A stretch of DNA of 64,000 nucleotides from a bacterium (GCA_021372575.1 JAJFUE010000029.1:22646-86645), one strand, 5' to 3'; counted from the first letter of the stretch, positions 2,128 through 40,721 are shown. Program-made: numbers and translations. Notes: a model not told the origin generated them from the letters alone.

Positions 2128-3065
2128 AGCTGGCTCAGAAATCGATCCATGTCCTCGAGCGGATAAAGCGGGTAGTTCTGTTCGATGACGCTGGGCGCGA
2201 TGACGAACGCCTTGGACGGAATCGTCGGGCTGAACACGTAGCCCGCCTTGATCTCGACGTCCAGCGTGATGCGCGGGTGATCGCTCGAGATGCGCAGCGC
2301 GCGCGGCAGCAGGCGCGCCGGCTGATCGGCGGCCCCCTCGTCCGTGAACATGTCCCATTGCTTGTAGGTCACGTCGATGCGCGCCGACTTGCGCTGCCAC
2401 CAGTGTTTGGCGTCGATCGGCCGGCGCCAGACGGCCCCGCGCGGCAGTCCCGACGCGCGATCGAGTTCGATTTTCACCGGCGCCAGCGGTTTCTCGTTTT
2501 GCGGCGCGAGCGCGGGGCGCCGCGCGCTCCCCTTCTCCTCGAACCCGCCGGCCGCGATCATCTGGCCAATTTCAAAAATCGAGATGAGGTCCGCCGGCTC
2601 AAAGCCGAAATGCCGGCCAAACGGCGAGCCGCCGTCCATGACTTCGCCCTGGAACACCGCACCCCTGAACTTACCGCTCTTATAGAACACCACGGTCATC
2701 ACGTTGTCGTGCAGCATAACGTCGAACAGGCTTAGGCCGCCGGCGGGGGGATACGTGTTGAGCCGCAGGTTCCGCGGATCGATCCCCAGAAACGTGAACT
2801 GGATGGAGTCCTTGCCGGAAAAAGCGCCCTTGGACGCGACGATCAGGCTCTGGCCGATTTTGAGCACCGGCGGCGGCGGATTGAAAACCTTCTGATAGCC
2901 TTGCAGGCGCGTCGCCGGATCGGCCAGCAGTTTCATCTCGGCCGGGGCATTGGCCGGAACCCCCACCGGCGCCGGCCGCAGTGCGACGCATCCCATCGGC
3001 ACGAGCGCCAGAACCATCAAAACGACAACGGCGCCCGCGCGCGCAACGGCATCCATCTTTTTCAT
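2124..3065 (-). CDS. Hypothetical secreted lipoprotein (signal peptide + lipobox Cys); ORF extends to 3104
   Basis: ORF 2124..3104. The internal start MKKMDAVARAGAVVVLMVLALVPMGC has a typical signal peptide and lipobox. Translationally coupled to the downstream MMPL transporter gene. Confidence 0.5.
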   Translation of the reverse strand: MKKMDAVARAGAVVVLMVLALVPMGCVALRPAPVGVPANAPAEMKLLADPATRLQGYQKVFNPPPPVLKIGQSLIVASKGAFSGKDSIQFTFLGIDPRNLRLNTYPPAGGLSLFDVMLHDNVMTVVFYKSGKFRGAVFQGEVMDGGSPFGRHFGFEPADLISIFEIGQMIAAGGFEEKGSARRPALAPQNEKPLAPVKIELDRASGLPRGAVWRRPIDAKHWWQRKSARIDVTYKQWDMFTDEGAADQPARLLPRALRISSDHPRITLDVEIKAGYVFSPTIPSKAFVIAPSVIEQNYPLYPLEDMDRFLSQL

Positions 3066-3169
3066 GTCACGTCCATTCCTGCCGGAAATGCGGGCCGGCA
3101 ACAACGCCGGCGCACGACTTCAACATCCATTTCATAGCAGAAATCGCAAGACGTGGCAAAGAATGTCGG

Positions 3170-3493
3170 TCACATCAACCCCAAATCCAATTTCGCAGCC
3201 TCGCTCATCATGTCCCGGTTCCACGGCGGGTCCCACACGACATCGACGATCGCCTCGGTCACGCCGGGAACCGACTCGGCCATCGACTTCACCTGGATCG
3301 GCAGGTATTCGGCCACGGGGCAGTTCGGCGCGGTGAGCGTCATCTTGATGATCACGCGCCCGTCATCCTGCGGATCGATTTCGTAGATCAGCCCCAAATC
3401 GTAAATATTCACCGGAATTTCCGGATCATAAATCGTCCGCATGGCATTCACGATGCTCTCATGCAGGTCGGGGTTGTCGTTCTGGTATTCCAT
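3170..3493 (-). CDS. sufT: SufT / DUF59 (MIP18-family) Fe-S cluster assembly protein
   Basis: 107 aa. DPEIPVNIYDLGLIYEI…TAPNCPVAEYL motif typical of the DUF59/SufT family. Last gene of the suf operon. Confidence 0.8.
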   Translation of the reverse strand: MEYQNDNPDLHESIVNAMRTIYDPEIPVNIYDLGLIYEIDPQDDGRVIIKMTLTAPNCPVAEYLPIQVKSMAESVPGVTEAIVDVVWDPPWNRDMMSEAAKLDLGLM

Positions 3494-3509
3494 TTCTCAA
3501 TCGCTTCTT

Positions 3510-3552
3510 CGTGCTCGTGCTCGTGCTCGTAATCGTAATCGTAATCGAATCC
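3510..3552. repeat. Hexanucleotide microsatellite (CGTGCT)3(CGTAAT)3-CGAATCC in the sufS-sufT spacer (copy 1 of 2)
   Basis: Direct reading. A 39-nt core identical to 7230..7268. Confidence 0.8.
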
Positions 3553-3582
3553 TGCGGCGTTGTTGCCTTTAACCGCGCGTCT

Positions 3583-4836
3583 CTACCTCAGCATCTCGAT
3601 GGCCTTCTTCACGGCCCCCGCAAGCACGTCGATCTCCTCGCGCGTGTTGTAGAACGAGAACGACGCCCGCGCTGTTCCCGGCAATCCCAATCGTTCCATC
3701 AGCGGCATCGCGCAGTGGTGGCCCGTCCTGATCGCGACGCCTTCCTGGTCCAGAATCGTCGCGATGTCGGTCGGATGCGTTCCATCCACGACGAACGAGA
3801 CGACGCTCGCCTTGTGCGGCGCCGTGCCGACGATGCGCAGCCCCGGGATCTCGCCCAACCGCGCCGTCGCGTAGTCCAGCAAATCCTGTTCATACGCCGC
3901 GATGTTTTCGATCCCGATCTTGCCCATATAGTCGATCGCCGCGCCGAGCCCGATCGCCCCCGCAATGTCCGGCGTGCCGGCCTCGAACTTGTACGGCACC
4001 ACGTTGAACGTCGTCTTGTCATACGTCACGCGGTCGATCATGTCGCCGCCGCACTGCCACGGCGGCATCTCGTCGAGCAGTTCGCGCCGCCCGTAAAGCG
4101 CGCCGATCCCGCTCGGGCCATAAATCTTGTGCCCGGAAAACACGTAAAAATCGCAGCCGAGCGCCGCAACATCGACCGCCGTGTGCGGCACGGCCTGCGC
4201 GCCGTCGATCAGCACCGGGACGCCGTGCCGATGGCCCATTTCAATCATCTCATGAACCGGGTTGACCGTGCCGAGCACGTTCGAGACGTGCGTCGCGGCG
4301 ATGATGCGCGTCCGCCCGTTGATCATTTTCTCCATTTTGTCCAGGAGCAGCACGCCGCGGTCGTCGATCGGCGCCACGCACAGGCTGGCCCCCTTCCTCG
4401 CGCATAGCATCTGCCACGGCACGATGTTCGCATGGTGTTCCAGCGCGGTGATCAGGACTTCGTCGCCGGCGCCCACGTTCTGCCAGCCCCAGCTCCACAC
4501 GACAAGGTTGATCGCCTCGGTCGCGCCCCGCACGAACACGATCTCGTGCCGGTCCGACGCGCCGAGGAACCGCCGCACCTTCTCGCGCGCGTCGTCGTGC
4601 GCCGCCGTCGCTTCCTGGCTGAGCTCGTGGATGCCGCGATGGATGTTCGAATAACTCTCGAAATAAAACCGGCTGAGCGCCTCGATCACCTGCCGCGGCT
4701 TTTGCGTCGAGGCCGCGTTGTCCAGGTACACGAGCGGCTTGCCGTGAACGCGCTTTTGCAGGATCGGGAAATCGGCGCGGATTTTCTCCACGTCCAAATC
4801 CCACTTGCGCTCGAGTGTCTGCGCCGCCGGGCTCAT
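3583..4836 (-). CDS. sufS: Cysteine desulfurase SufS (class II aminotransferase)
   Basis: The ORF track shows an 813-aa ORF, but the true start is the internal MSPAAQTLERKWDLDVEKIRADFPIL… at 4836 (ATGA overlap with the sufD stop). PLP lysine motif SGHKIYGPSGIGALYG; C-terminal RTGHHCAMPLM active-site Cys loop. Confidence 0.9.
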   Translation of the reverse strand: MSPAAQTLERKWDLDVEKIRADFPILQKRVHGKPLVYLDNAASTQKPRQVIEALSRFYFESYSNIHRGIHELSQEATAAHDDAREKVRRFLGASDRHEIVFVRGATEAINLVVWSWGWQNVGAGDEVLITALEHHANIVPWQMLCARKGASLCVAPIDDRGVLLLDKMEKMINGRTRIIAATHVSNVLGTVNPVHEMIEMGHRHGVPVLIDGAQAVPHTAVDVAALGCDFYVFSGHKIYGPSGIGALYGRRELLDEMPPWQCGGDMIDRVTYDKTTFNVVPYKFEAGTPDIAGAIGLGAAIDYMGKIGIENIAAYEQDLLDYATARLGEIPGLRIVGTAPHKASVVSFVVDGTHPTDIATILDQEGVAIRTGHHCAMPLMERLGLPGTARASFSFYNTREEIDVLAGAVKKAIEMLR

Positions 4837-6185
4837 ATCAATGCCTCCGCCAGCGGATTGTGCGCGTGGAATTTCTCCGAGATGATCCGCCCCAGCTCGT
4901 TCTTCAGCGCCTCGGCGCGCACCTGGTCGAGCACCTCGCCGGCGAACGCGAACGTCAGCAGCGCCCGCGCCTCCTCGAGCCCGATCCCGCGCGAGCGCAG
5001 GTAAAACGCCGCTTCCGAATCCAGCTGCCCGACCGCCGCGCCGTGCGTGCATTTCACGTCGTCGGCGAAAATCTCCAGCTGCGGCTGCGCGTTCACCACC
5101 GCGCTGTCCGACAGGAGCAGCGCCCGGTTCCGCTGATATGCATCCGTTTTCTGCGCGTCCGGCCGCACCACGATCCGGCCCGTGAACACGCCGCTCGCAT
5201 GGTCGTCCAGGATGCCCTTGTACAGTTCGGTGCTGTGGCAGTGCGGCACCGCGTGGTCGAGCCGCGTGTGCGCGTCGGCGTGCTGTGTGCCGGAGATCGC
5301 ATACAGACCGTTCAGCACGGTCTCGGTCCCCTCGCCCGCGAGCGTCACGTTCACGTTCTGCCGCGACAGCGCCCCCCCGATCGCGAACGCGTGCGTGCGC
5401 AGGTTGCTCGACCGCGCCTGCCGCGCGTACATCGAATGCACATGGAACGCGCCGGGGCTCTCGAGCTGGACCTTGTAATGATCGACCTGCGCGTCCTCGC
5501 CGATCGCCATCTCCGTCACGCCGTTCGTCAGATAAACGCCTTCGCCGAGCCCGCCGTAGGTCCCGATGATCGTGATCTGCGCGGCCCGGCCGACGACGGC
5601 CAGGTTGCGCGAGTGGAACGCCAGCGGCTGCGCCCCCGCCGTCGCGAGAAACACCACGTGCATCGGCTTCTCGATCACGCATCCGTCCGGCACGTGCACG
5701 AACACGCCGTTCTGCAGCCATGCGGAATTGAGCGCGGTGAACGGATTCTTCGGGTCCTCGGCGCAGCGCCCCAGGTTCTCGCGAAACACGCGGTCGCCGC
5801 TGCCGATCGCCTCGCCGACCGTCATCAGGCGCACGCCCGCCGGCAGCTCGCCGACATCCGAAATCTCCGGCTGATACACGCCATTCATAAAGACGAACCG
5901 GTGCGCGTCGAGCCCCGGGATGAAATATTTCGCCGCATCGCCCGCGAGCTTGTGATACGTCCGCGCCGGGTCGGGGCTGGCAAACACCGTGTTCTCGAGC
6001 GCCTCCAGGTTCGTGAACCGCCATTCCTCATCCTTGGCCCCCGGCAACCCGAGCGCATTGAACCGGTCCAGCGCCTTCCTGCGCATCGACCTGATCCAAT
6101 CGACATCCGCCCCCATCAGCTGCGGCTCCATCCGCAGATATTCGGCGATGAAGTGATCCTTGGCGCTGCCCGTCGCGATTGCCAT
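4833..6185 (-). CDS. sufD: Fe-S cluster assembly protein SufD
   Basis: 450 aa with SufD/SufB-family beta-helix features (…VHVPDGCVIEKPMHVVFL…IGEDAQVDHYKV…). Lies between sufC and sufS. Confidence 0.85.
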   Translation of the reverse strand: MAIATGSAKDHFIAEYLRMEPQLMGADVDWIRSMRRKALDRFNALGLPGAKDEEWRFTNLEALENTVFASPDPARTYHKLAGDAAKYFIPGLDAHRFVFMNGVYQPEISDVGELPAGVRLMTVGEAIGSGDRVFRENLGRCAEDPKNPFTALNSAWLQNGVFVHVPDGCVIEKPMHVVFLATAGAQPLAFHSRNLAVVGRAAQITIIGTYGGLGEGVYLTNGVTEMAIGEDAQVDHYKVQLESPGAFHVHSMYARQARSSNLRTHAFAIGGALSRQNVNVTLAGEGTETVLNGLYAISGTQHADAHTRLDHAVPHCHSTELYKGILDDHASGVFTGRIVVRPDAQKTDAYQRNRALLLSDSAVVNAQPQLEIFADDVKCTHGAAVGQLDSEAAFYLRSRGIGLEEARALLTFAFAGEVLDQVRAEALKNELGRIISEKFHAHNPLAEALI

Positions 6186-6192
6186 TTGATTA

Positions 6193-6462
6193 AGTCCTGA
6201 GTCCTGAGTGCTGAGTCCTGATTCAATTCAAACAAAAATGCAGTCACGAGATTCACGAAATGAAGACCATGAAATTTCACGAAAATGTTTTCAGAATTCC
6301 TTTATGCCTCTAATTCGAACGCTTGTTCTTTTTCGTGCCTTTTCGTGAGAATTCTTTCGTGACTTTCGTGACTGAGTTTGTATTTGTTTCGCCGTTTCAA
6401 GGCTGTTTCCCGATCGAGACTGCCGGTTCATAAACCTCAGCACTCAGGACTCAGGACTCAGC
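6193..6462. repeat. Palindromic MITE-like intergenic element: about 27-bp terminal inverted repeats (AGTCCTGAGTCCTGAGTGCTGAGTCCTGA / TCAGCACTCAGGACTCAGGACTCAGC) flanking an AT-rich core with TTCGTG / CACGAA motifs
   Basis: Left arm 6193..6221 and right arm 6437..6462 are reverse complements. The core 6222..6436 is much more AT-rich than its surroundings. The right arm supplies the last codons (LSPES*) of sufC. Confidence 0.5.
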
Positions 6463-7211
6463 GCTTCTTCCTCCACCCATCCGTATCCTTCACGCTCCAG
6501 CTCCAGCGCCAGCTCCTTGCCGCCGCTCTTGATCACGCGGCCGTTCACCAGCACGTGCACGAAATCCGGCACGATGTAATTCAGCAACCGCTGGTAGTGC
6601 GTCACGACGACGATCCCGCGATCGCCGCCGCGCAGCGAGTTCACGCCCTCGGCCACGATCCGCAGCGCGTCGATATCCAAGCCCGAATCGGTCTCGTCCA
6701 AAATCGCCAGCTTCGGCTCGAGCACCGCCATCTGGAACACTTCGTTGCGTTTCTTCTCGCCGCCCGAGAATCCCTCGTTCACCGATCTCTTCAACAGGCT
6801 CTCGTCCATCTTGACGAGTTGCATCTTCTCGCGCACGAGCTTCAAAAATTCCTCGCTCGAAATCTCGTCCTCGCCGCGATGTTTCCGCGCCGCGTTCAGC
6901 GCCGACCTCAAAAAATACGTGTTGTTCACGCCCGGGATCTCTACCGGGTATTGGAACGCCAGGAAAATTCCCGCCCGCGCGCGGATTTCAGGTTCCATCT
7001 CGAGCAGGTTCTGGCCGTCATAGACGACCTCGCCCTCGGTGACCGTGTAGGTCTCGCGCCCGGCGAGCACGCCCGCCAGCGTCGATTTCCCCGACCCGTT
7101 CGGTCCCATGATCGCATGCACCTCACCCGGATTGACCACAAGGTCGATCCCCTTGAGAATCTCCCGATCCTCAATCCGCGCGTGCAGATTTTTGATTTCA
7201 AGCAGACTCAT
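6444..7211 (-). CDS. sufC: Fe-S cluster assembly ATPase SufC
   Basis: 255 aa. Walker [13 protein letters not shown] signature FSGGEKKR, Walker [13 protein letters not shown]. Confidence 0.9.
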
Positions 7212-7224
7212 CCGTTTGCTCCAT

Positions 7225-7268
7225 TCGCACTCGTGCTCGTGCTCGTAATCGTAATCGTAATCGAATCC
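7225..7268. repeat. Hexanucleotide microsatellite (CGTGCT)2-3(CGTAAT)3-CGAATCC in the sufB-sufC spacer (copy 2 of 2)
   Basis: The same 39-nt core as 3514..3552. Confidence 0.8.
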
Positions 7269-7302
7269 ACCGCGTTATCGCCGATCCTCTCACGCCATCA
7301 AT

Positions 7303-8744
<1,442 letters not shown>

Positions 8745-8748
<4 letters not shown>

Positions 8749-9248
8749 CCGTTCGCTCTCCCCGAAGCCCCCAACGTTGGTTCGGTAGTCTTGTCGATTG
8801 GCATCGATGCGGTCTCGGCCAGCCGGATCAATTCAGGCCCGCGCGTCGGCTGGAACATCTCGGCCAGCGTGATCCCGTCCAGCGCTCCCTGGATCGCCTC
8901 GTTGATCCGGTTCCAGCTGATCCGCAGCGGGCAATGCGTCCCCACCCCGCAGCGCGCCTGATCGGTCAGGCACTCGGTGATCGCGATCGGCCCCTCGAGC
9001 GCCTGGATGATCTCCGAGATACGGATCTGCGAGGCCGGCCGGATCAGCCGGAAGCCCCCCTTCGTCCCGCGGTGCGACGCCAGGATCCCGCCCCGCGCCA
9101 GCGCCTTGAGGATCTTGCTGACCATCGGCAGCGGCAGCCGCGTCAGGCCGGCCAGGTCGCGCGCGTTATGCGTCGTTTCCTGCCCTTGAGTGGCCATCTG
9201 ACAGAGCAGGACGATCGCGTAATCGGTGATTTTGGTCAGGCGAATCAT
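8745..9248 (-). CDS. Rrf2-family transcriptional regulator (IscR/SufR-like); likely regulator of the suf operon
   Basis: 167 aa. N-terminal [19 protein letters not shown] wHTH typical of Rrf2. Three Cys ([14 protein letters not shown]) as an Fe-S ligand candidate. Stop overlaps the sufB start. Confidence 0.8.
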
Positions 9249-9413
9249 GTTTCAGACCCAATCGGACCGTTTCAGTACTCAATCGCAAATTCAATTTACA
9301 ACTCGGTCCATTATAGCGCAAGCTTTAATTCGAACCCAACCGGTACGATATCTCCGATCCATGCACATTCATCACTGAATTTATGTCGGATATGATACTC
9401 CTAAATAAGGATC

Positions 9414-9460
9414 ACCCCACCCGAATTCAGTCGTTCGGAGTGGGGTGTCCTGTGTTTTGA
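9414..9460 (+). terminator. Candidate hairpin (CACCCCAC…GTGGGGTG) followed by a T-rich tract, between the lipoprotein gene and the suf promoter region
   Basis: An 8-bp perfect stem with an internal sub-hairpin (CCGAA…TTCGG), then TCCTGTGTTTTG. Confidence 0.3.
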
Positions 9461-9478
9461 ACCGCTTGACGAATCGCG

Positions 9479-9877
9479 TCAGCGGACCTTGATGCCCGTT
9501 CCGGCCGCCTTATCCACATAAATGCCGATAAACACGAACGGCAGGCCGGTGTAAATCTCGCTGTGCGGCATGACGTTGATCATGGCCGTCGCGCCATCGG
9601 CTTTGGCGGCCTTGCCGGCGTCGCCGAGCAACGCTTCATTGGAATACATCGGCAGCAGTTCCATGATCTTGCAAATGAGCGGGATTCCCACCGCAATCCC
9701 GACTTCGGTCTGGTCGTAACGGCCCGTCGCGGTGTAATTCTCGAACGTGCCGTCGCCGGTCGTCACGTTGGTGAGGCCGCTTTCCCGGGCCACCTGGGCC
9801 AGGTCGGTCTTGGAGCCAAGCGACATGCAGCCGGTCAACACTGCCCCCAACATGATCGCGCACATAATTGTCCGCAT
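9479..9877 (-). CDS. Small lipoprotein, TRL-like family (tentative)
   Basis: Start chosen at MRTIMCAIMLGAVLTGC (signal peptide + lipobox), with a GAGGTG RBS 7 nt upstream. The ORF track extends to 9955. Confidence 0.5.
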   Translation of the reverse strand: MRTIMCAIMLGAVLTGCMSLGSKTDLAQVARESGLTNVTTGDGTFENYTATGRYDQTEVGIAVGIPLICKIMELLPMYSNEALLGDAGKAAKADGATAMINVMPHSEIYTGLPFVFIGIYVDKAAGTGIKVR

Positions 9878-10036
9878 CGTGCCACCTCGCTTTGAGCGAT
9901 GTTTTTCGCTCGGTTTAGATTGAAACAGCTTGTGTGAGTAAAATTGATTATTCACCGATCGCGGCGCAAAATCAAAATTTTTCGCCCTCGTTCCAAATTA
10001 ATGAAATTTATCCGCGGTTGAGGTTTAGTATTCGCG

Positions 10037-12170: not shown

Positions 12171-12854
12171 ATGCTCGCGACCGACCTCGGGAACGCCCGA
12201 GTCACAGAGCTTTCGGCAGAATCAACGAACATGCCAGCCGCCACCGACATCTCCAACCTCGTCTCCGGCGCCGATTCCGCCGAGCGTCTTCTGCTGGCAT
12301 GCCTTAAAACCGCGGAAACGAATGGCACGACGTTCTCCACGCTCGACAAAATGGTCACCACGCTCGCCCGCCTGACCGCCATCCGCAAATCATTGATCAA
12401 TCTTTCCGATAGCCCCGAACCCGAATCGCCTGATTCAACAGATCATTCCCATTCATCCCATCATTCCCATTCCCCCGAAAACCCATCAACTACCGATTCC
12501 ATCTGCGAGCCGTCGATACGTGAAGTCCGGGAAATCCCCGCAATGCCCCTCGACCGCATCGCCGGTGAACTCAACCGCATCAACTGTGATCTCACCGAAC
12601 AACTGCAATTCGCACAAATCGTTCGTAGTCCCGCCTTCAGGCGGAACGATCAATTCATCCAATCCGCGCAATCCGCGTTCGGCCCGAATTCCGATCCGCC
12701 CCCATCCGTTCAATCCACGTCATCCAAGTGTGGCCCGAATTCCGATCCGCCCTCATCCGTTCAATCCGCGTCATCCGCGTGTGGCTTGGATTCCGATCCG
12801 TCCCCATCCGTTCAATCCGCGTCATCCGCGTGTGGCTCGGCAGGCTATGCCTAG
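12171..12854 (+). CDS. Hypothetical Ser/Pro-rich protein with three 51-bp tandem repeats (GPNSDPPPSVQS(T/A)SS(K/A)C)x3; contains one copy of the 26-bp palindromic element
   Basis: ORF in the lower-GC patch. Tandem repeat at 12681..12833; palindromic element at 12621..12646, in frame. Confidence 0.35.
   Translation: MLATDLGNARVTELSAESTNMPAATDISNLVSGADSAERLLLACLKTAETNGTTFSTLDKMVTTLARLTAIRKSLINLSDSPEPESPDSTDHSHSSHHSHSPENPSTTDSICEPSIREVREIPAMPLDRIAGELNRINCDLTEQLQFAQIVRSPAFRRNDQFIQSAQSAFGPNSDPPPSVQSTSSKCGPNSDPPSSVQSASSACGLDSDPSPSVQSASSACGSAGYA
12621..12646. repeat. 26-bp palindromic element GTTCGTAGTYCCGCCTTCAGGCGGAA (copy 1 of 4)
   Basis: Stem CCGCC/GGCGG with loop TTCA. The same sequence occurs at 15873..15898, 15919..15944 (inverted) and 16108..16133. 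Confidence 0.8.
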
Positions 12855-14288: not shown

Positions 14289-14578
14289 GGCGCGAACTCG
14301 CGCTCGATTACTGCATCAAAAAACGAACCGGAAGAAAGAATCGAGATCCACGGAACACACGGAATTAGAATTTCTCCGTTTTCTCCGTTTCCTCCTGTTC
14401 AATTCTTCTGTTCAGAAATATTCTCTGCCTCTCTGCCAAACTCTGCTTCTCTGCGACAAAAATCTTTTTCGTGTTTTTTCGTGCTCTTCTTTCGTGTGTT
14501 TCGTGTTTGCATTTTTGGGTTGCGGCTCCGCTGCGCCAAGTATTCAGTGTATTCCGTGGTTCAGAGCGACCTGCTGAC

Positions 14579-15787: not shown

Positions 15788-15872
15788 GACGATGCCTTTC
15801 CGAATGGACTGCCTGACCAAGCCATTTTTTCAGGAAACGAGGGAATACGGAATCGAAAAAAGTAACGTAAGG

Positions 15873-15898
15873 TTCGTAGTTCCGCCTTCAGGCGGAAT
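15873..15898. repeat. 26-bp palindromic element (copy 2)
   Basis: GTTCGTAGTTCCGCCTTCAGGCGGAA. Confidence 0.8.
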
Positions 15899-15918
15899 AT
15901 GCACGCCGCTTGGTTATG

Positions 15919-15944
15919 TTCCGCCTGAAGGCGGCACTACCAAC
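15919..15944. repeat. 26-bp palindromic element (copy 3, inverted relative to copy 2); it abuts the stop codon of the sigma54 activator
   Basis: TTCCGCCTGAAGGCGGCACTACCAAC, the reverse complement of the consensus. Copies 2 and 3 form a long inverted pair. Confidence 0.8.
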
Positions 15945-15945
15945 T

Positions 15946-16935
15946 CTATGTTTTAATCTTGTCCTGGTATTTCCTGTAATAACCGCGGAACTGGTGGTAG
16001 GTCAGGCCGAGGCACTCGGCAGCCTGACGCTGGTTGTAGTGGGTGGCCTCGAGCGCCTCGCGCAGCCGCCGCAGCTCGAGCTCGGCAATCTCGTCGGTAA
16101 GGGTAATGTTCGTAGTCCCGCCTTCAGGCGGAACAACAGGGTTGCTCGCGTGATTCGCCCACTCCGACTCGAACGGGTTGAAGATGATGTCGTCGATCGG
16201 CTCGCCGCCGCAGCGATAGACCATGCGCTCGATGACGTTCTTGAGCTCGCGGACGTTGCCCGGCCATTCGTAATCGAGCAGCATCGCCCTCGCGCGCCCG
16301 GTGAGCTCGGGGGCCTTCTCATAGCCCATCTCGGACGCCATGCGGCGCGCGAAGTGCTCGGCGAGGATCGGGATGTCGTCCTTGCGCGCGCGCAGCGGAG
16401 GCAGCGTGATCACCTCGAAGCTGAGGCGGTCCAGCAGGTCCTGGCGGAACTGGCCGTCGCGCGCCATCGCGAGGAGGTCGGCGTGCGTGGCCGCGATCAG
16501 GCGCACGTTGGCGATGATGGGCGTCGAACTGCCGACGCGCTCCATCTGGCCGTACTCGACGACGCGCAGAATTTTCTCCTGGACCGTGGGCGGGATGTTG
16601 GCGACCTCGTCGAGGAACAGGGAGCCGCCATCGGCGATCTCGAAGCGCCCCTTGCGCTGGCGCAGCGCCCCGGTGAACGCGCCGGCCTCGTGGCCGAACA
16701 GCTCGCTCTCGATCAGCGTCGGGCTGAGCGCGGCGCAGTTGAGCGTGACGTAGGGCTGGCTCCAGCGCGTCGAGAGCATGTGCAGGCGCGCGGCGGCGAG
16801 CTCCTTGCCGGTGCCGCGCTCGCCGATAAAAATCACCGGCCGGCTGGTGCGCGCGGCCATCGAAATGCGCTCCTGCAGCTCGAGGAACGCCTCGGACTGG
16901 CCAAGGGCCTGGTTGTCAAGAACCCCGTCGCTCAT
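15946..16935 (-). CDS. Sigma-54-dependent transcriptional activator, AAA+ and HTH domains only (PspF-like, no sensor domain), with an in-frame palindromic-element insertion in the linker
   Basis: 329 aa. Walker A GERGTGKE, GAFTGA loop (…ESELFGHEAGAFTGA…), Walker B, C-terminal HTH (…QRQAAECLGLTYHQFRGYY…). The peptide VVPPEGGTTN is encoded by the 26-bp element at 16108..16133. Confidence 0.8.
   Translation of the reverse strand: MSDGVLDNQALGQSEAFLELQERISMAARTSRPVIFIGERGTGKELAAARLHMLSTRWSQPYVTLNCAALSPTLIESELFGHEAGAFTGALRQRKGRFEIADGGSLFLDEVANIPPTVQEKILRVVEYGQMERVGSSTPIIANVRLIAATHADLLAMARDGQFRQDLLDRLSFEVITLPPLRARKDDIPILAEHFARRMASEMGYEKAPELTGRARAMLLDYEWPGNVRELKNVIERMVYRCGGEPIDDIIFNPFESEWANHASNPVVPPEGGTTNITLTDEIAELELRRLREALEATHYNQRQAAECLGLTYHQFRGYYRKYQDKIKT
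16108..16133. repeat. 26-bp palindromic element (copy 4), in frame inside the sigma54 activator CDS
   Basis: GTTCGTAGTCCCGCCTTCAGGCGGAAC. Confidence 0.8.
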
Positions 16936-17047
16936 GATCCGCTCCCGGGAAAATCGCGAGAAATGCCAACGTTACGGAACAAGGTAACACCAACGGCGGG
17001 TTTTTTGTGAAGCGGAAAAGGTGCACAAAAAAGATGGCAAAGGAAAC

Positions 17048-17077
17048 TTGACAATCGGGGTGCAAAATCGGTTTAGT
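17048..17077 (+). promoter_or_regulatory. Candidate sigma70 promoter for the tRNA pair (TTGACA, 17-18 nt spacer, TTTAGT/TAGTAG)
   Basis: TTGACA at 17048..17053, an AT-rich -10-like region 17 to 18 nt downstream, about 30 nt upstream of tRNA-Gln. Confidence 0.3.
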
Positions 17078-17108
17078 AGTAGTGGTTGCGGCTTTTGATG
17101 GCCAATGC

Positions 17109-17184
17109 TGGGGAGTGGTGTAGTTGGTAACACGCCTGACTCTGGATCAGGAGTTCGTAGGTTCGAGTCCTACCTCCCCAGCCA
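17109..17184 (+). tRNA. tRNA-Gln (anticodon CTG), CCA encoded
   Basis: Cloverleaf read by hand. Acceptor TGGGGAG/CTCCCCA, anticodon stem CCTGA/TCAGG with loop CTCTGGA, T-arm GTAGG-TTCGAGT-CCTAC, discriminator G, CCA. Confidence 0.8.
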
Positions 17185-17214
17185 CTTCAAACCATCGATT
17201 CCCTACCAACAGGT

Positions 17215-17290
17215 GGCGCTATCGTCTAGGGGTCTAGGACGCTGGCCTCTCACGCCGGAAACAGGGGTTCGAATCCCCTTGGCGCTACCA
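17215..17290 (+). tRNA. tRNA-Glu (anticodon CTC), CCA encoded; the integration target of the island
   Basis: Aligns with E. coli tRNA-Glu along its whole length (TCGTCTAG…AGGAC…CTCAC…AACAGGGGTTCGAATCCCCT). Anticodon stem CTGGC/GCCGG, loop CTCTCAC, T-loop TTCGAAT, discriminator A, CCA. The acceptor stem has G1:U72 and U6:G67 wobble pairs. Confidence 0.75.
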
Positions 17291-17303
17291 AACTGAATTC
17301 GCA

Positions 17304-17337
17304 AGACTTAGCTGATGAAGCTAGGTCTTTTTTATTG
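17304..17337 (+). terminator. Rho-independent terminator after the tRNA-Glu gene
   Basis: 9-bp stem AGACTTAGC / GCTAGGTCT (one G:U), 7-nt loop, followed by TTTTTTATT. Confidence 0.5.
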
Positions 17338-17375
17338 TAGTAAGACCCCACGTTACACGGGTCATGTTACACGGG

Positions 17376-18470
17376 TCACTCCGATACACCATCTTTCTTG
17401 GGCTCAGGAAGCGCGATCTCCAGGATCGGAGCGGTCGGATGACAGTAACGCTCCGTAGTGCTGATCCGGTTGTGTCCAAGCGCCGCCTTGAGCGCGAACG
17501 CATTGTGCCCAACCATCTCAGCCATCAATGTCGCGTAGGTGTGGCGAAACGAATGCCCAGTAAGCTTTTGCCCGAGTGCATCATACTTGGGGATACCCGC
17601 TTTCTTTAGAACATCATCGAACTGGCGGCAGGCAGCGAAAAGACGCTTGAATACAAACGCTGTCTTTGAACGCTTCATTTGCGATTTAAGAGGCTCGATG
17701 ACCCATTCGGGCAACGGAATCACGCGCACCTTCGGATTCGCCTTAGCTGCCCCTTGACGCTGTTTGGCTGTTCTTAGCCTGATTAGGCTGTGCTCGAAGT
17801 CCACCTCGGTCTTGAGCAGCGGTTTGTGGGTGCTCATCGGAGAAGGCACGAGTTCTGCCTGACGCGCACCGGTGGCAAGCATGAGCAAGTAAAGCGGTTT
17901 GAGTCGAGCAGGACAAGCCTCGAAAAATTTGGCGAGTTCTTCATTGGTTAAAGCACGTTGTGCGGTTACCTTGCCTGGTTTAGGAGTGGGCTTCTGCACG
18001 TGGAATCCATTTACGCGCAGCATCCGGATCATATAGATCAGTTCCCGGTTGACGGTGCCGAGAGATCTCGTCTTTAGGCGATAACGTTGGAATTTCTCCA
18101 GTAGCTCGGTTGTGATCCTTTCCAGTTTGATGTCGCCGGCGTAGTTCAGGAAGTTCTTTAGCGAGAACTCAACCCGCTCACTCTGAAGGGGCGAGACGTC
18201 TATCTTGAGCCGCTGCACCTCTGCCTTGATCGCGTTGGAGAGAGTCAACGGGTCCCTTGGGTCAATCCGATAGCTCTCCGCCATCTCTTTGAGGCGCGGG
18301 ATCTCTTTAAGCGCTCGTTTCTTGTCCGTCTGCCCTGTTGAACGGCTCCAAGTCTTGCCATTCACCTCAGTCTGATAAATCCAAACGTTTCGACCTTTCA
18401 TACGACGTAAAACCATCGACAAAGCCTCTGTTGGGCTGCGCGCCCAGGAATGTATCTGCATGCGATTCAC
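17376..18470 (-). CDS. int: Tyrosine-type site-specific integrase (phage integrase family)
   Basis: 364 aa. C-terminal catalytic motifs …GHSFRHTYAT… and …LGHNRISTTERYCH… (H-x-x-R and the catalytic Y). N-terminal SAM-like/AP2-like DNA-binding region. Confidence 0.85.
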   Translation of the reverse strand: MNRMQIHSWARSPTEALSMVLRRMKGRNVWIYQTEVNGKTWSRSTGQTDKKRALKEIPRLKEMAESYRIDPRDPLTLSNAIKAEVQRLKIDVSPLQSERVEFSLKNFLNYAGDIKLERITTELLEKFQRYRLKTRSLGTVNRELIYMIRMLRVNGFHVQKPTPKPGKVTAQRALTNEELAKFFEACPARLKPLYLLMLATGARQAELVPSPMSTHKPLLKTEVDFEHSLIRLRTAKQRQGAAKANPKVRVIPLPEWVIEPLKSQMKRSKTAFVFKRLFAACRQFDDVLKKAGIPKYDALGQKLTGHSFRHTYATLMAEMVGHNAFALKAALGHNRISTTERYCHPTAPILEIALPEPKKDGVSE

Positions 18471-40247: not shown

Positions 40248-40295
40248 TGGCCTTTCACGCCGGAAACAGGGGTTCGAATCCCCTTGGCGCTACCA
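40248..40295 (+). repeat. 48-bp direct repeat of the tRNA-Glu 3' half (attR-like); carries anticodon TTC instead of CTC
   Basis: TGGCCTTTCACGCCGGAAACAGGGGTTCGAATCCCCTTGGCGCTACCA matches 17243..17290 at 47 of 48 positions. The upstream sequence does not continue the tRNA 5' half. Confidence 0.7.
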
Positions 40296-40721
40296 AAATG
40301 AAACTAAAGCACTTACGGCCCGGAGCTCACCCTCCGGGCCATCTTAACGTACACCGGCAGCGTACACCGGATGGGGGCGAGCCGCCTAGCCCATTCGATG
40401 CGTCTTTATCTAACTCCCACGGGATATCGAGGTTGATCGTCGGTATCTGAGTATGAGCTGGTAGCCGAAACGAGCGCCAGCTTTATGAATGGAAAAGCTT
40501 CTCGCATGGTTATGCGCCCATACCTACCATAATGAAAAAATCGAAGGAAAATATTAAAGTTATTCAGAATACAGATAAAGTTTATAAAGTTTCTTGACAA
40601 CAGCGAGGATTTCATGCTTTCTGTTGCCAGCTGTAGCTGTAATTACCGTCAAAAATGAGTCGAACGGATCAGCGGTGAGGTCGTTTTTACCCGCCGATGC
40701 CCCAATTTGGAGGTAAACGAG

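Follow-up and report, generated by a model that had tools for sequence, protein, structure and literature searches.

The question raised by this locus is why two spacers of one housekeeping operon should carry the same tract of tandem hexanucleotides. The locus is a suf operon, for iron-sulfur (Fe-S) assembly, on the minus strand of a 64,000-nt stretch of bacterial DNA (GCA_021372575.1 JAJFUE010000029.1:22646-86645), the whole of which is called the window below. A first-pass annotation of the window had proposed that the tracts could be slipped-strand variable sites, translational spacers or binding sites for a regulator acting on Fe-S assembly stoichiometry. There is good support for regarding the suf tracts as members of a dispersed family of intergenic repeats, (CGATTA)n(CGAGCA)m, with no specific link to Fe-S assembly. 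The evidence from the source genome covers 64 kb, and the statements made here about function are inferred from sequence.

The 39-nt core of the tract (CTCGTGCTCGTGCTCGTAATCGTAATCGTAATCGAATCC on the plus strand) occurred exactly twice in the window, at 3514-3552 and 7230-7268. No third copy was found in the window even when up to three mismatches were permitted, and none was found in 100 shuffles. The shared stretch was wider than the core and extended over 45 nt with 96% identity. Copy A (3508..3552, minus strand) lies in the spacer between sufS and sufT (3494-3582, minus strand), and copy B (7224..7268, minus strand) in the spacer between sufB and sufC (7212-7302, minus strand). In the sense of the mRNA the element reads GGAUU-(CGAUUA)3-(CGAGCA)3-CGAA. 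With copy A as the 45-nt reference, copy B has two mismatches, its third CGAGCA-type unit being CGAGUG. Tandem Repeats Finder detected a period of 6 at the arrays. Both copies have one orientation, sense to the operon, and lie 3.7 kb apart, so that the first-pass report of an identical composite hexamer tract in two intercistronic suf spacers is borne out. The starts given there, 3510 and 7225, were off by 4-5 nt from the core positions. The stated distance to the start codon, 25 to 40 nt, was approximately right, as the core ends 18 nt from the AUG of sufC and 20 nt from that of sufT and spans about -57/-59 to -19/-21.

Downstream of copy B, the rest of the sufC leader, as read from the sequence, is UGGAGCAAACGG (7212..7223, minus strand), with a GGAG Shine-Dalgarno at -11..-8 between array and AUG. 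The corresponding part of the sufT leader is GAAGCGAUUGAGAA (3494..3507, minus strand), where the only Shine-Dalgarno-like feature is a weak GAG triplet. Beyond both copies, towards the mRNA 5′ end, a patchy likeness continued in the alignment for about 19 nt (..AGGCAACAACGCCGCA at 3553..3571 beside copy A and ..CGGCGAUAACGCGGU at 7269..7286 beside copy B, both minus strand). This likeness, which is weak evidence, suggests that the copied segment was about 60-65 nt long. No inverted copy or inverted partner of the array was found in the window.

The host could be placed through its SufC protein, which was 100% identical to an NCBI protein labelled “bacterium” and 94% identical to a protein of the Candidatus Sumerlaeia metagenome-assembled genome (MAG) JBDKRG01, referred to below as the sister genome. 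The window host is a Sumerlaeia genome. To follow the array outside the window, we used a 21-mer across the junction of its two units (GCTCGTGCTCGTAATCGTAAT). The 21-mer was present in at least 89 stretches from at least 43 assemblies (one genome per GTDB species), belonging to about ten phyla by label. The copy numbers are lower bounds from a sample of phyla that is not exhaustive, the 80 listed stretches amounting to 43 assemblies, and the phylum labels are those given by the depositors of the MAGs. Titles among the matches listed included Planctomycetota (several families), Verrucomicrobiota/Chthoniobacterales, Victivallales, Sumerlaeia, Hydrogenedentota, Riflebacteria, Acidobacteriota, Nitrospiraceae, Desulfobacterota and Bacteroidota, as well as two MAGs labelled Bacillota. 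A complete isolate genome, CP050848 (Planctomycetota), was also among the matches listed. In the sister genome the array occupied at least 20 places beside unrelated genes. The G+C content of array loci ranged from 42 to 72%, and the flanks of the arrays were unrelated between genomes.

Only two matches were found in 2.9 million viral contigs, and BLAST searches of plasmids and of Escherichia coli detected no composite array. Matches in Ralstonia CobN and E. coli RcnA were rejected as unrelated to the composite array, being coding (GAGCAC)n stretches for His-rich (EH)n tracts. Rfam returned no relevant match for window positions 3000-10000 at E<=10, and no match for the array in 18 array-bearing loci at the gathering score. 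One of these searches recovered an Acido-Lenti-1 RNA motif (RF01687, 50 bits, above the gathering score) at 3668-3713 of a Planctomycetaceae MAG contig (L016); it is unrelated to the arrays. Searches of the literature by sequence strings (full text) and by topic did not find the element, and (CGATTA)n(CGAGCA)m is apparently an undescribed intergenic repeat.

The constant feature of the arrays was the triplet CGA every 6 nt, alternating with a variable triplet (TTA, GCA, GTA or TTT). All were polar, with AT-rich units first and GC-rich units last, usually opening with (T)TTCG and closing with CGA(A/C), and they ranged in length from 21 to 99 nt. Their genomic context was examined with a purpose-written gene caller, which matched the deposited annotation of L090, the sister-genome locus, and for which nine of ten checked calls had Pfam hits. 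Intergenic positions accounted for 89 of the 99 non-redundant copies, compared with about 17% intergenic sequence overall. Orientation relative to the flanking genes was balanced: 28 copies ran in the same direction as both neighbours, 24 in the opposite direction to both, 13 lay between convergent genes and 6 between divergent ones. Placement near gene ends was polar as well. Among solo copies, 16 of 53 had their GAGCAC end no more than 30 nt from a gene end, and 5 of 48 had their GATTAC end so placed. A gene on the strand of the array presents its start codon there, and one on the other strand its stop codon. The random genome-wide scatter that the first-pass annotation had set against a role for the tracts was therefore found in part: the copies are scattered, yet they are strongly intergenic and biased to gene ends. 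An explanation of the antisense arrays after genes as backup stop codons was discarded, as the array TAA was in frame with the stop in merely 5 of 24.

An inverted partner array was present within 200 nt on the AT-rich side of 28 of the 99 copies and on the other side of five. Such pairs give hairpins whose stems have the GC-rich units at their base, and some of these hairpins fill the whole intercistronic spacer, from just past the stop to just before the next start. Unlike those 28 copies in other genomes, neither window copy has an inverted partner. In the sister genome some arrays were contained in a multi-copy unit of about 130 nt with terminal inverted repeats (TTGACAAAAGT..), and in a Planctomycetaceae MAG arrays were contained in multi-copy units of about 200 nt. 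The flanks of the two window copies shared no inverted termini, and the terminus of the sister-genome unit was absent from the window. A further variant consisted of antisense arrays split at CTC|GTG by a small hairpin with a stem of 2-4 bp and a loop of GAA, GCA, GATA or others. It was found in Planctomycetota, Bacteroidota, Desulfosarcina and the two MAGs labelled Bacillota (loci L001, L007, L008, L010, L016, L022, L037, L039, L041, L052, L054 and L065). The hairpin takes the form A-GC-GAA-GC-G plus variants, and a composite of about 35 nt (CGTGCTCGTGCTCAGCGAAGCGGTGCTCGTAAT) was common to several phyla. GCGAAGC is a classic, very stable DNA mini-hairpin.

No full-length mobile element with arrays as termini and a gene between them was found; in L006 and L058 the genes between inverted arrays were ordinary ones. 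Nor was any transposase or REP-associated tyrosine transposase (RAYT) tied to the arrays in the loci examined. In a Hydrogenedentes contig (L002, 226-1880) an open reading frame (ORF) at 688-1728, recognised by eye from its translation as an IS110-family-like transposase, lies between arrays, which may serve there as an IS110 insertion target. A Y1_Tnp gene of IS200/RAYT type was present near the suf operon of L090 (16702-17436, region 16550-17460). It is flanked by inverted GGTGACAGCTACCGAAT.. / ..TAGCTGTCACCGAAAT, a repeat family distinct from the hexamer array.

Eleven sense copies, nine from other genomes and the two from the window, ended 2-23 nt before confirmed start codons, and five of the 11 had no other Shine-Dalgarno. 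The genes 3′ of the nine non-window copies were those for glyoxalase, MiaB-like, phosphoglycerate kinase (PGK), metallo-beta-lactamase-fold, GcvT, ATP synthase epsilon and ExbD proteins, with one that had no Pfam match. Arrays were also found 36 and 39 nt upstream of the Lgt and glutaredoxin genes. The genes downstream of arrays had no common function.

At the glyoxalase gene the array persisted at an orthologous start codon. In two Verrucomicrobiota species (loci L026 and L083) an identical array abutted the ATG of the orthologous gene; the flanking genes were 73-79% identical and the remaining spacer could not be aligned. Soil-metagenome orthologues, chosen by protein only, provided 80 further loci (L100-L179, 74-85% identity) with 57 unique upstream regions. 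In 22 of the 57 (about 40%), CGA was phase-locked at -5, -11 or -17, each of these positions having 13-14 occurrences where chance predicts about 0.9. The ATG itself was a unit variant in these soil loci (ACGAGC to ATGAGC), the first codons continued the array (MSTS, MSKS, MSRS), and some decayed units now read AGGAG. These patterns indicate that the array is old at the glyoxalase start, where it would form the initiation region. The block from -20 to -1 had a pairwise identity of 0.60, compared with 0.49-0.55 for third codon positions and about 0.3 further upstream, in an ungapped comparison with some selection bias.

The soil glyoxalase upstream regions were also mosaics of other tandem families, which differed by clade. 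Heptamers of the form (CGTTGGA/CGTTGAG)n stood directly 5′ of the hexamer array, and (AATCTGCG)n also occurred, as did (CATCTGTG)n with inverted CACAGAT copies. A hairpin element, GTCATTCCGAGCGAAG..GAGGAATC, was frequent in these spacers.

The history of the two window copies was examined by comparing suf spacers in five relatives, one of them L090. In the sufB-sufC spacer of L090 a collinear array of 3+3 units was found at 9957-9989, with point changes and with flanks otherwise different from those in the window. The sufS-sufT spacer of L090 lacked the array, as did both suf spacers in the other four relatives, at 89-91% and 82% SufC identity. The suf spacers of these four held other tandem families, including CACGAAA/TTTCGTG hairpins, GCAGAGA-type and GGATTT-type repeats and CTGAGTC heptamers. 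Since the L090 array is collinear, the sufB-sufC copy is ancestral to the window and L090, and was already present in their common ancestor. The sufS-sufT copy is specific to the window lineage. Being near-identical, in the same orientation and 3.7 kb off, it has the look of a recent local copy, in which a segment of about 45-65 nt would have been transferred within the genome into a nearby spacer, in the same orientation, by a presumed copying mechanism. Two side observations were made on the suf sequences. The Sumerlaeia relative L094 has an extra ORF of 171 aa (432-947) between sufB and sufC, without a Pfam match, and the database protein P0001 is a chimeric, duplicated SufC.

The operon itself runs, all on the minus strand and each gene Pfam-confirmed, from an Rrf2 regulator gene (9248-8745) through sufB (8748-7303, SUFBD_core), sufC (7211-6444, ABC ATPase, PF00005), sufD (6185-4833) and sufS (4836-3583, cysteine desulfurase, Aminotran_5) to a sufT-type gene (3493-3170, FeS_assembly_P, PF01883). 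The cistrons 5′ and directly 3′ of copy B are thus sufB and sufC, and those of copy A are sufS and the sufT-type gene. Folding of the two array spacers was not significant against shuffles (z -0.8 and -0.6), and no promoter-like or terminator-like site was found at the arrays in the window. With no significant structure and no consensus site, a hairpin, terminator or promoter role was ruled out for the window copies. Coding of a (DY)3(EH)3 peptide was likewise rejected: copy A has this frame in register with the stop of sufS, whereas copy B has it in register with the start of sufC. From the last in-frame stop up to the array, neither copy offers a start codon.

A different spacer of the operon did contain a strong structure. 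In the minus-strand mRNA the sufC-sufD spacer (6186-6443, arms 6192-6221 and 6437-6466) is predicted to form a nested hairpin of -107 kcal/mol (z -7.2). Its outer stem of about 25 bp consists of inverted heptamer arrays, (CUGAGUC)n/(GACUCAG)n, and its interior is a second long hairpin, made up of repeats of CACGAAA / UUUCGUG. The final sufC codons are overlapped by the 5′ arm. In relatives the modules occurred separately, the inner one alone in L090, L091, L095 and L096 and the outer one alone in L094.

Several known kinds of repeat resemble the array. Short tandemly repeated repetitive (STRR) sequences of filamentous cyanobacteria were reportedly described by Mazel et al. in 1990. In cyanobacteria, STRRs are dispersed intergenic tandem heptamers, often forming intercistronic hairpins, for which roles in transcript stability or translational coupling have been proposed (PMC2670836). 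The array shares with them the short tandem units, the many dispersed intergenic copies with several unit families per genome, the frequent location between cistrons of operons and the capacity for hairpin formation where arrays are inverted; the window also has a heptamer-array hairpin in its sufC-sufD spacer. However, the array unit is 6 nt rather than the classical 7 nt and is part of a polar two-unit composite in fixed order. The window array is hosted by Sumerlaeia, and no cyanobacterium was among the matches listed. STRR units are lineage-specific, whereas the array units recur over many phyla. STRR is the closest known concept, followed by repetitive extragenic palindromic (REP) sequences and their hairpin-forming doublets (REPINs). 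These are dispersed intergenic repeats that occur as singles or inverted doublets in operons, persist at orthologous sites and carry a GTAG/CGTC tag (PMC3733652). Like REPs, REPINs and bacterial interspersed mosaic elements (BIMEs), the array is a few tens of nt long, dispersed and intergenic, single or, in other genomes, also in inverted doublets, found within operons and persistent at orthologous sites. Unlike REP units, a single array contains no palindrome and is built of tandem hexamers; GTAG and CGTC are absent from both strands of the 45-nt element; and no RAYT is flanked by the array, the sole Y1_Tnp seen in the loci examined (L090) having another repeat. The 6-nt unit, the polar two-unit form, the lack of palindrome, tag and RAYT and the recurrence across phyla therefore set the array apart from both STRR and REP/REPIN. 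The resemblance to miniature inverted-repeat transposable elements (MITEs) lies in the 130-200-nt multi-copy units with inverted termini that contain the array in the sister genome and some Planctomycetota. The window copies, in contrast, have no inverted termini or target duplication and their flanks are unrelated, and the array is the sole part found across phyla.

The reading that we tentatively favour, and judge to be close to an even chance, is that the suf arrays are a dispersed repeat of STRR/REP kind that forms the distal leader of sufC and sufT and serves as a generic translation-initiation or spacer module. The arrays would then be the distal part of the sufC and sufT translation-initiation regions, from about -20 to -60, just 5′ of the Shine-Dalgarno. 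Acting in cis, they would give the cistron that follows a generic leader or a module for loading ribosomes, and such generic distal segments may aid independent ribosome loading on sufC and sufT. Where an inverted copy stands on the AT-rich side, the two arrays would become the arms of an intercistronic hairpin. Of the early proposal of a translational spacer, this keeps the role, with which the comparative data are compatible, as that of a generic module, and drops the link to suf. There is a likeness to Shine-Dalgarno-independent enhancers, the S1-dependent leaders that include the omega sequence of tobacco mosaic virus (TMV) with ACAAUUAC and CA multimers, in that a repetitive leader stands immediately 5′ of starts. 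Moreover, the CGAUUAC unit of the array resembles the CAAUUAC repeat of TMV omega. The omega repeat and Shine-Dalgarno-independent leader enhancers were reportedly described by Gallie and Kado in 1989 and by Tzareva et al. in 1994. Unlike those enhancers, the array is not G-poor, half of its copies are antisense, and its unstructuredness is statistically unsupported.

A number of observations weigh against this leader reading. The suf operons of close relatives manage without arrays. The two sites disagree in the predicted accessibility of Shine-Dalgarno and AUG, which relative to shuffled arrays was slightly raised for sufC (7% of shuffles reached the native value) and lowered for sufT (98.7% reached it). 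For isolated arrays, the minimum free energy lay in the range of the shuffles, and folding was not significantly below them. As half of the copies are antisense, a pure mRNA-leader function cannot explain the family, and many copies may be tolerated insertions. The excess conservation at the glyoxalase start is modest, so that purifying selection is suggested but not proven. Finally, a generic role as spacer does not account for the sequence being identical in different phyla.

The main rival to the leader reading, which we consider somewhat unlikely, is that the arrays are selfish or neutral DNA: arms or half-sites of palindromic mobile elements of MITE or REPIN kind, or copies spread by gene conversion, that persist between genes because they do little harm there and that have no role in suf. 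The lack of strand bias relative to genes agrees with this, as do the polarity of the inverted partners (28 on the AT-rich side, 5 on the other, with a GC-rich stem base), the longer multi-copy units that contain arrays (about 130 nt in the sister genome, about 200 nt in the Planctomycetaceae MAG) and the variable small hairpin at CTC|GTG, which is typical of elements processed as single-stranded DNA. The IS110-family transposase between arrays in L002, the gain and loss of arrays among close relatives and the presence of two window copies within 3.7 kb point the same way. However, no transposase or RAYT was found with the arrays in the loci examined, the L090 Y1_Tnp gene carrying a different repeat; the window copies have neither terminal inverted repeats nor a partner; and full-length elements, with a gene enclosed by inverted arrays, were not recovered. 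In many species the array can still be recognised at the same orthologous start codon, and it was nearly absent from viral contigs (two matches in 2.9 million) and absent from plasmids. Transfer by mobile elements alone would hardly yield a sequence that is identical across phyla with unrelated flanks. That the same 21-45 nt recur with unrelated flanks at 42-72% G+C would be explained if the array and its hairpin-split variant were the recognition element of a factor (a protein, an RNA or a mobilisation enzyme) common to the phyla concerned, which could be PVC bacteria, Sumerlaeota, Acidobacteriota, Nitrospirota, Desulfobacterota and others; we regard such a common factor as unlikely. Binding of the arrays in trans, for co-regulation or processing of all array transcripts, including the suf mRNA at sufB|sufC and sufS|sufT, seems to us quite improbable. 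Candidates would be an oligomeric RNA- or single-stranded-DNA-binding protein reading a triplet every 6 nt (TRAP-like, or on DNA of ribbon-helix-helix/omega-like kind), RNase E or another endoribonuclease cutting CGAUUA units, or a complementary antisense or 3′-UTR-derived RNA. An invariant CGA at strict intervals of 6 nt, and two units that stay the same in many phyla, would call for sequence-specific recognition, and a trans factor would give the best account of the sequence identity across phyla. Both orientations occur, so that complementary RNAs would coexist in one cell, and an intercistronic position in operons fits processing or differential expression. Yet no candidate emerged, no partner sequence was found within the window and no Rfam family matched. 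Equal strand use argues against a single RNA-strand-specific protein, and a 6-bp period does not align sites on one face of duplex DNA. Complementarity to 16S rRNA and sites for Hfq (ARN), CsrA, Rho, H-NS and CcrM were considered and dropped for equal strand use or misfit of the motif.

Two remaining explanations fare badly. One, a contingency locus, is very improbable; in it, populations would vary sufC and sufT expression, by switching or tuning, through slipped-strand gain or loss of units. In its favour, perfect tandem hexamers can in principle slip, arrays at different loci vary widely in length (21 to 99 nt), and the contingency loci of Haemophilus and Neisseria also consist of short tandem repeats upstream of a gene (for example PMC12721329). 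The window arrays differ from those in lying outside promoter spacers and reading frames, so that no promoter or frame depends on their length, and in being conserved across species and not hypervariable. Between the window and L090, the sufB-sufC arrays align collinearly at 3+3 units and differ by point substitutions, and the decayed arrays of the glyoxalase series also change by substitution. A metagenome scan with a variable-gap pattern for length variants of the sufB-sufC spacer gave no match, and thus no strain variants. The slipped-strand proposal of the first-pass annotation is not sustained by these results. A regulator site, which that annotation also proposed, is not supported either. 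In one such reading the GATTAC triplets would be a Fur-box-like array or an Rrf2 site that sets SufBCD/SufS/SufT stoichiometry; this is barely tenable. The Fur box is said by Escolar et al. to be readable as GATAAT hexamer repeats. GATTAC agrees with five of the six positions of the NATWAT Fur hexamer and stands three times in tandem beside iron-related genes in the window, and an Rrf2 regulator gene heads the operon. Against this, the last T of the Fur hexamer is a C in every unit, the GAGCAC half has no Fur-like character, and the arrays are intercistronic, inside the operon and away from the promoter. The genes next to copies elsewhere are unrelated to iron: the arrays stand beside pgk, miaB-like, gcvT, atpC, exbD, lgt, glutaredoxin and glyoxalase genes, preceding unrelated housekeeping genes in both orientations and also following stop codons. 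They occupy at least 20 places in the sister genome and occur in about ten phyla by label, whereas the suf operons of four of the five relatives lack them. The reading as an Fe-S operator is largely refuted by this distribution.

The window contained other repeats besides the hexamer arrays. CACGAAA/TTTCGTG was its most intergenic-enriched 7-mer, with 11 intergenic and 5 genic occurrences (for example at 14463-14510 and 6250-6370), and arrays of TCTCTGCC and TTTCTCCGT were found at 14371-14454. Together these show that the spacers in this genome are patchworks, pieced together from several families of short tandem repeats. At 12653-12839 a 51-nt unit is repeated in tandem about 3.5 times (81-87% identity), just 3′ of a low-complexity stretch rich in His, Pro and Ser. 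Repeat comparison of the window also recovered a REP-like palindromic repeat, GTTCGTAGTCCCGCCTTCAGGCGGAA, in four copies within 3.5 kb (12616-12646, 15867-15897, 15918-15951 and 16103-16133), of which the third is inverted and two form an inverted pair. Genes for tRNA-Gln and tRNA-Glu were found at 17109-17290. The 3′ half of the latter (17243-17297) is repeated with 96% identity at 40248-40302, 23 kb downstream, which points to an integrated element, about 23 kb long, with att-like direct repeats at its ends.

For the suf operon the outcome is deflationary. The tracts are no Fe-S control device, and the suf operons of close relatives work without them. Annotation is affected too, since spurious ORFs arise from arrays of this kind, and a gene can take its start codon and N-terminal residues from one (MSTS and others, in the glyoxalase series). 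The interest lies in the family, as a short non-coding sequence that is identical across distant phyla is rare in bacteria outside rRNA and tRNA genes and parS-like sites. If the arrays are a generic translation-initiation or intercistronic module, they bear on how ribosomes are loaded within operons in little-studied phyla that make weak use of Shine-Dalgarno sequences. If they are mobile DNA, they are a new minimal type of repeat comparable to REPINs. Were a factor common to these phyla to recognise them, they would represent a new class of cross-phylum cis-element, either a signal for translation or processing or a kind of non-autonomous mobile DNA.

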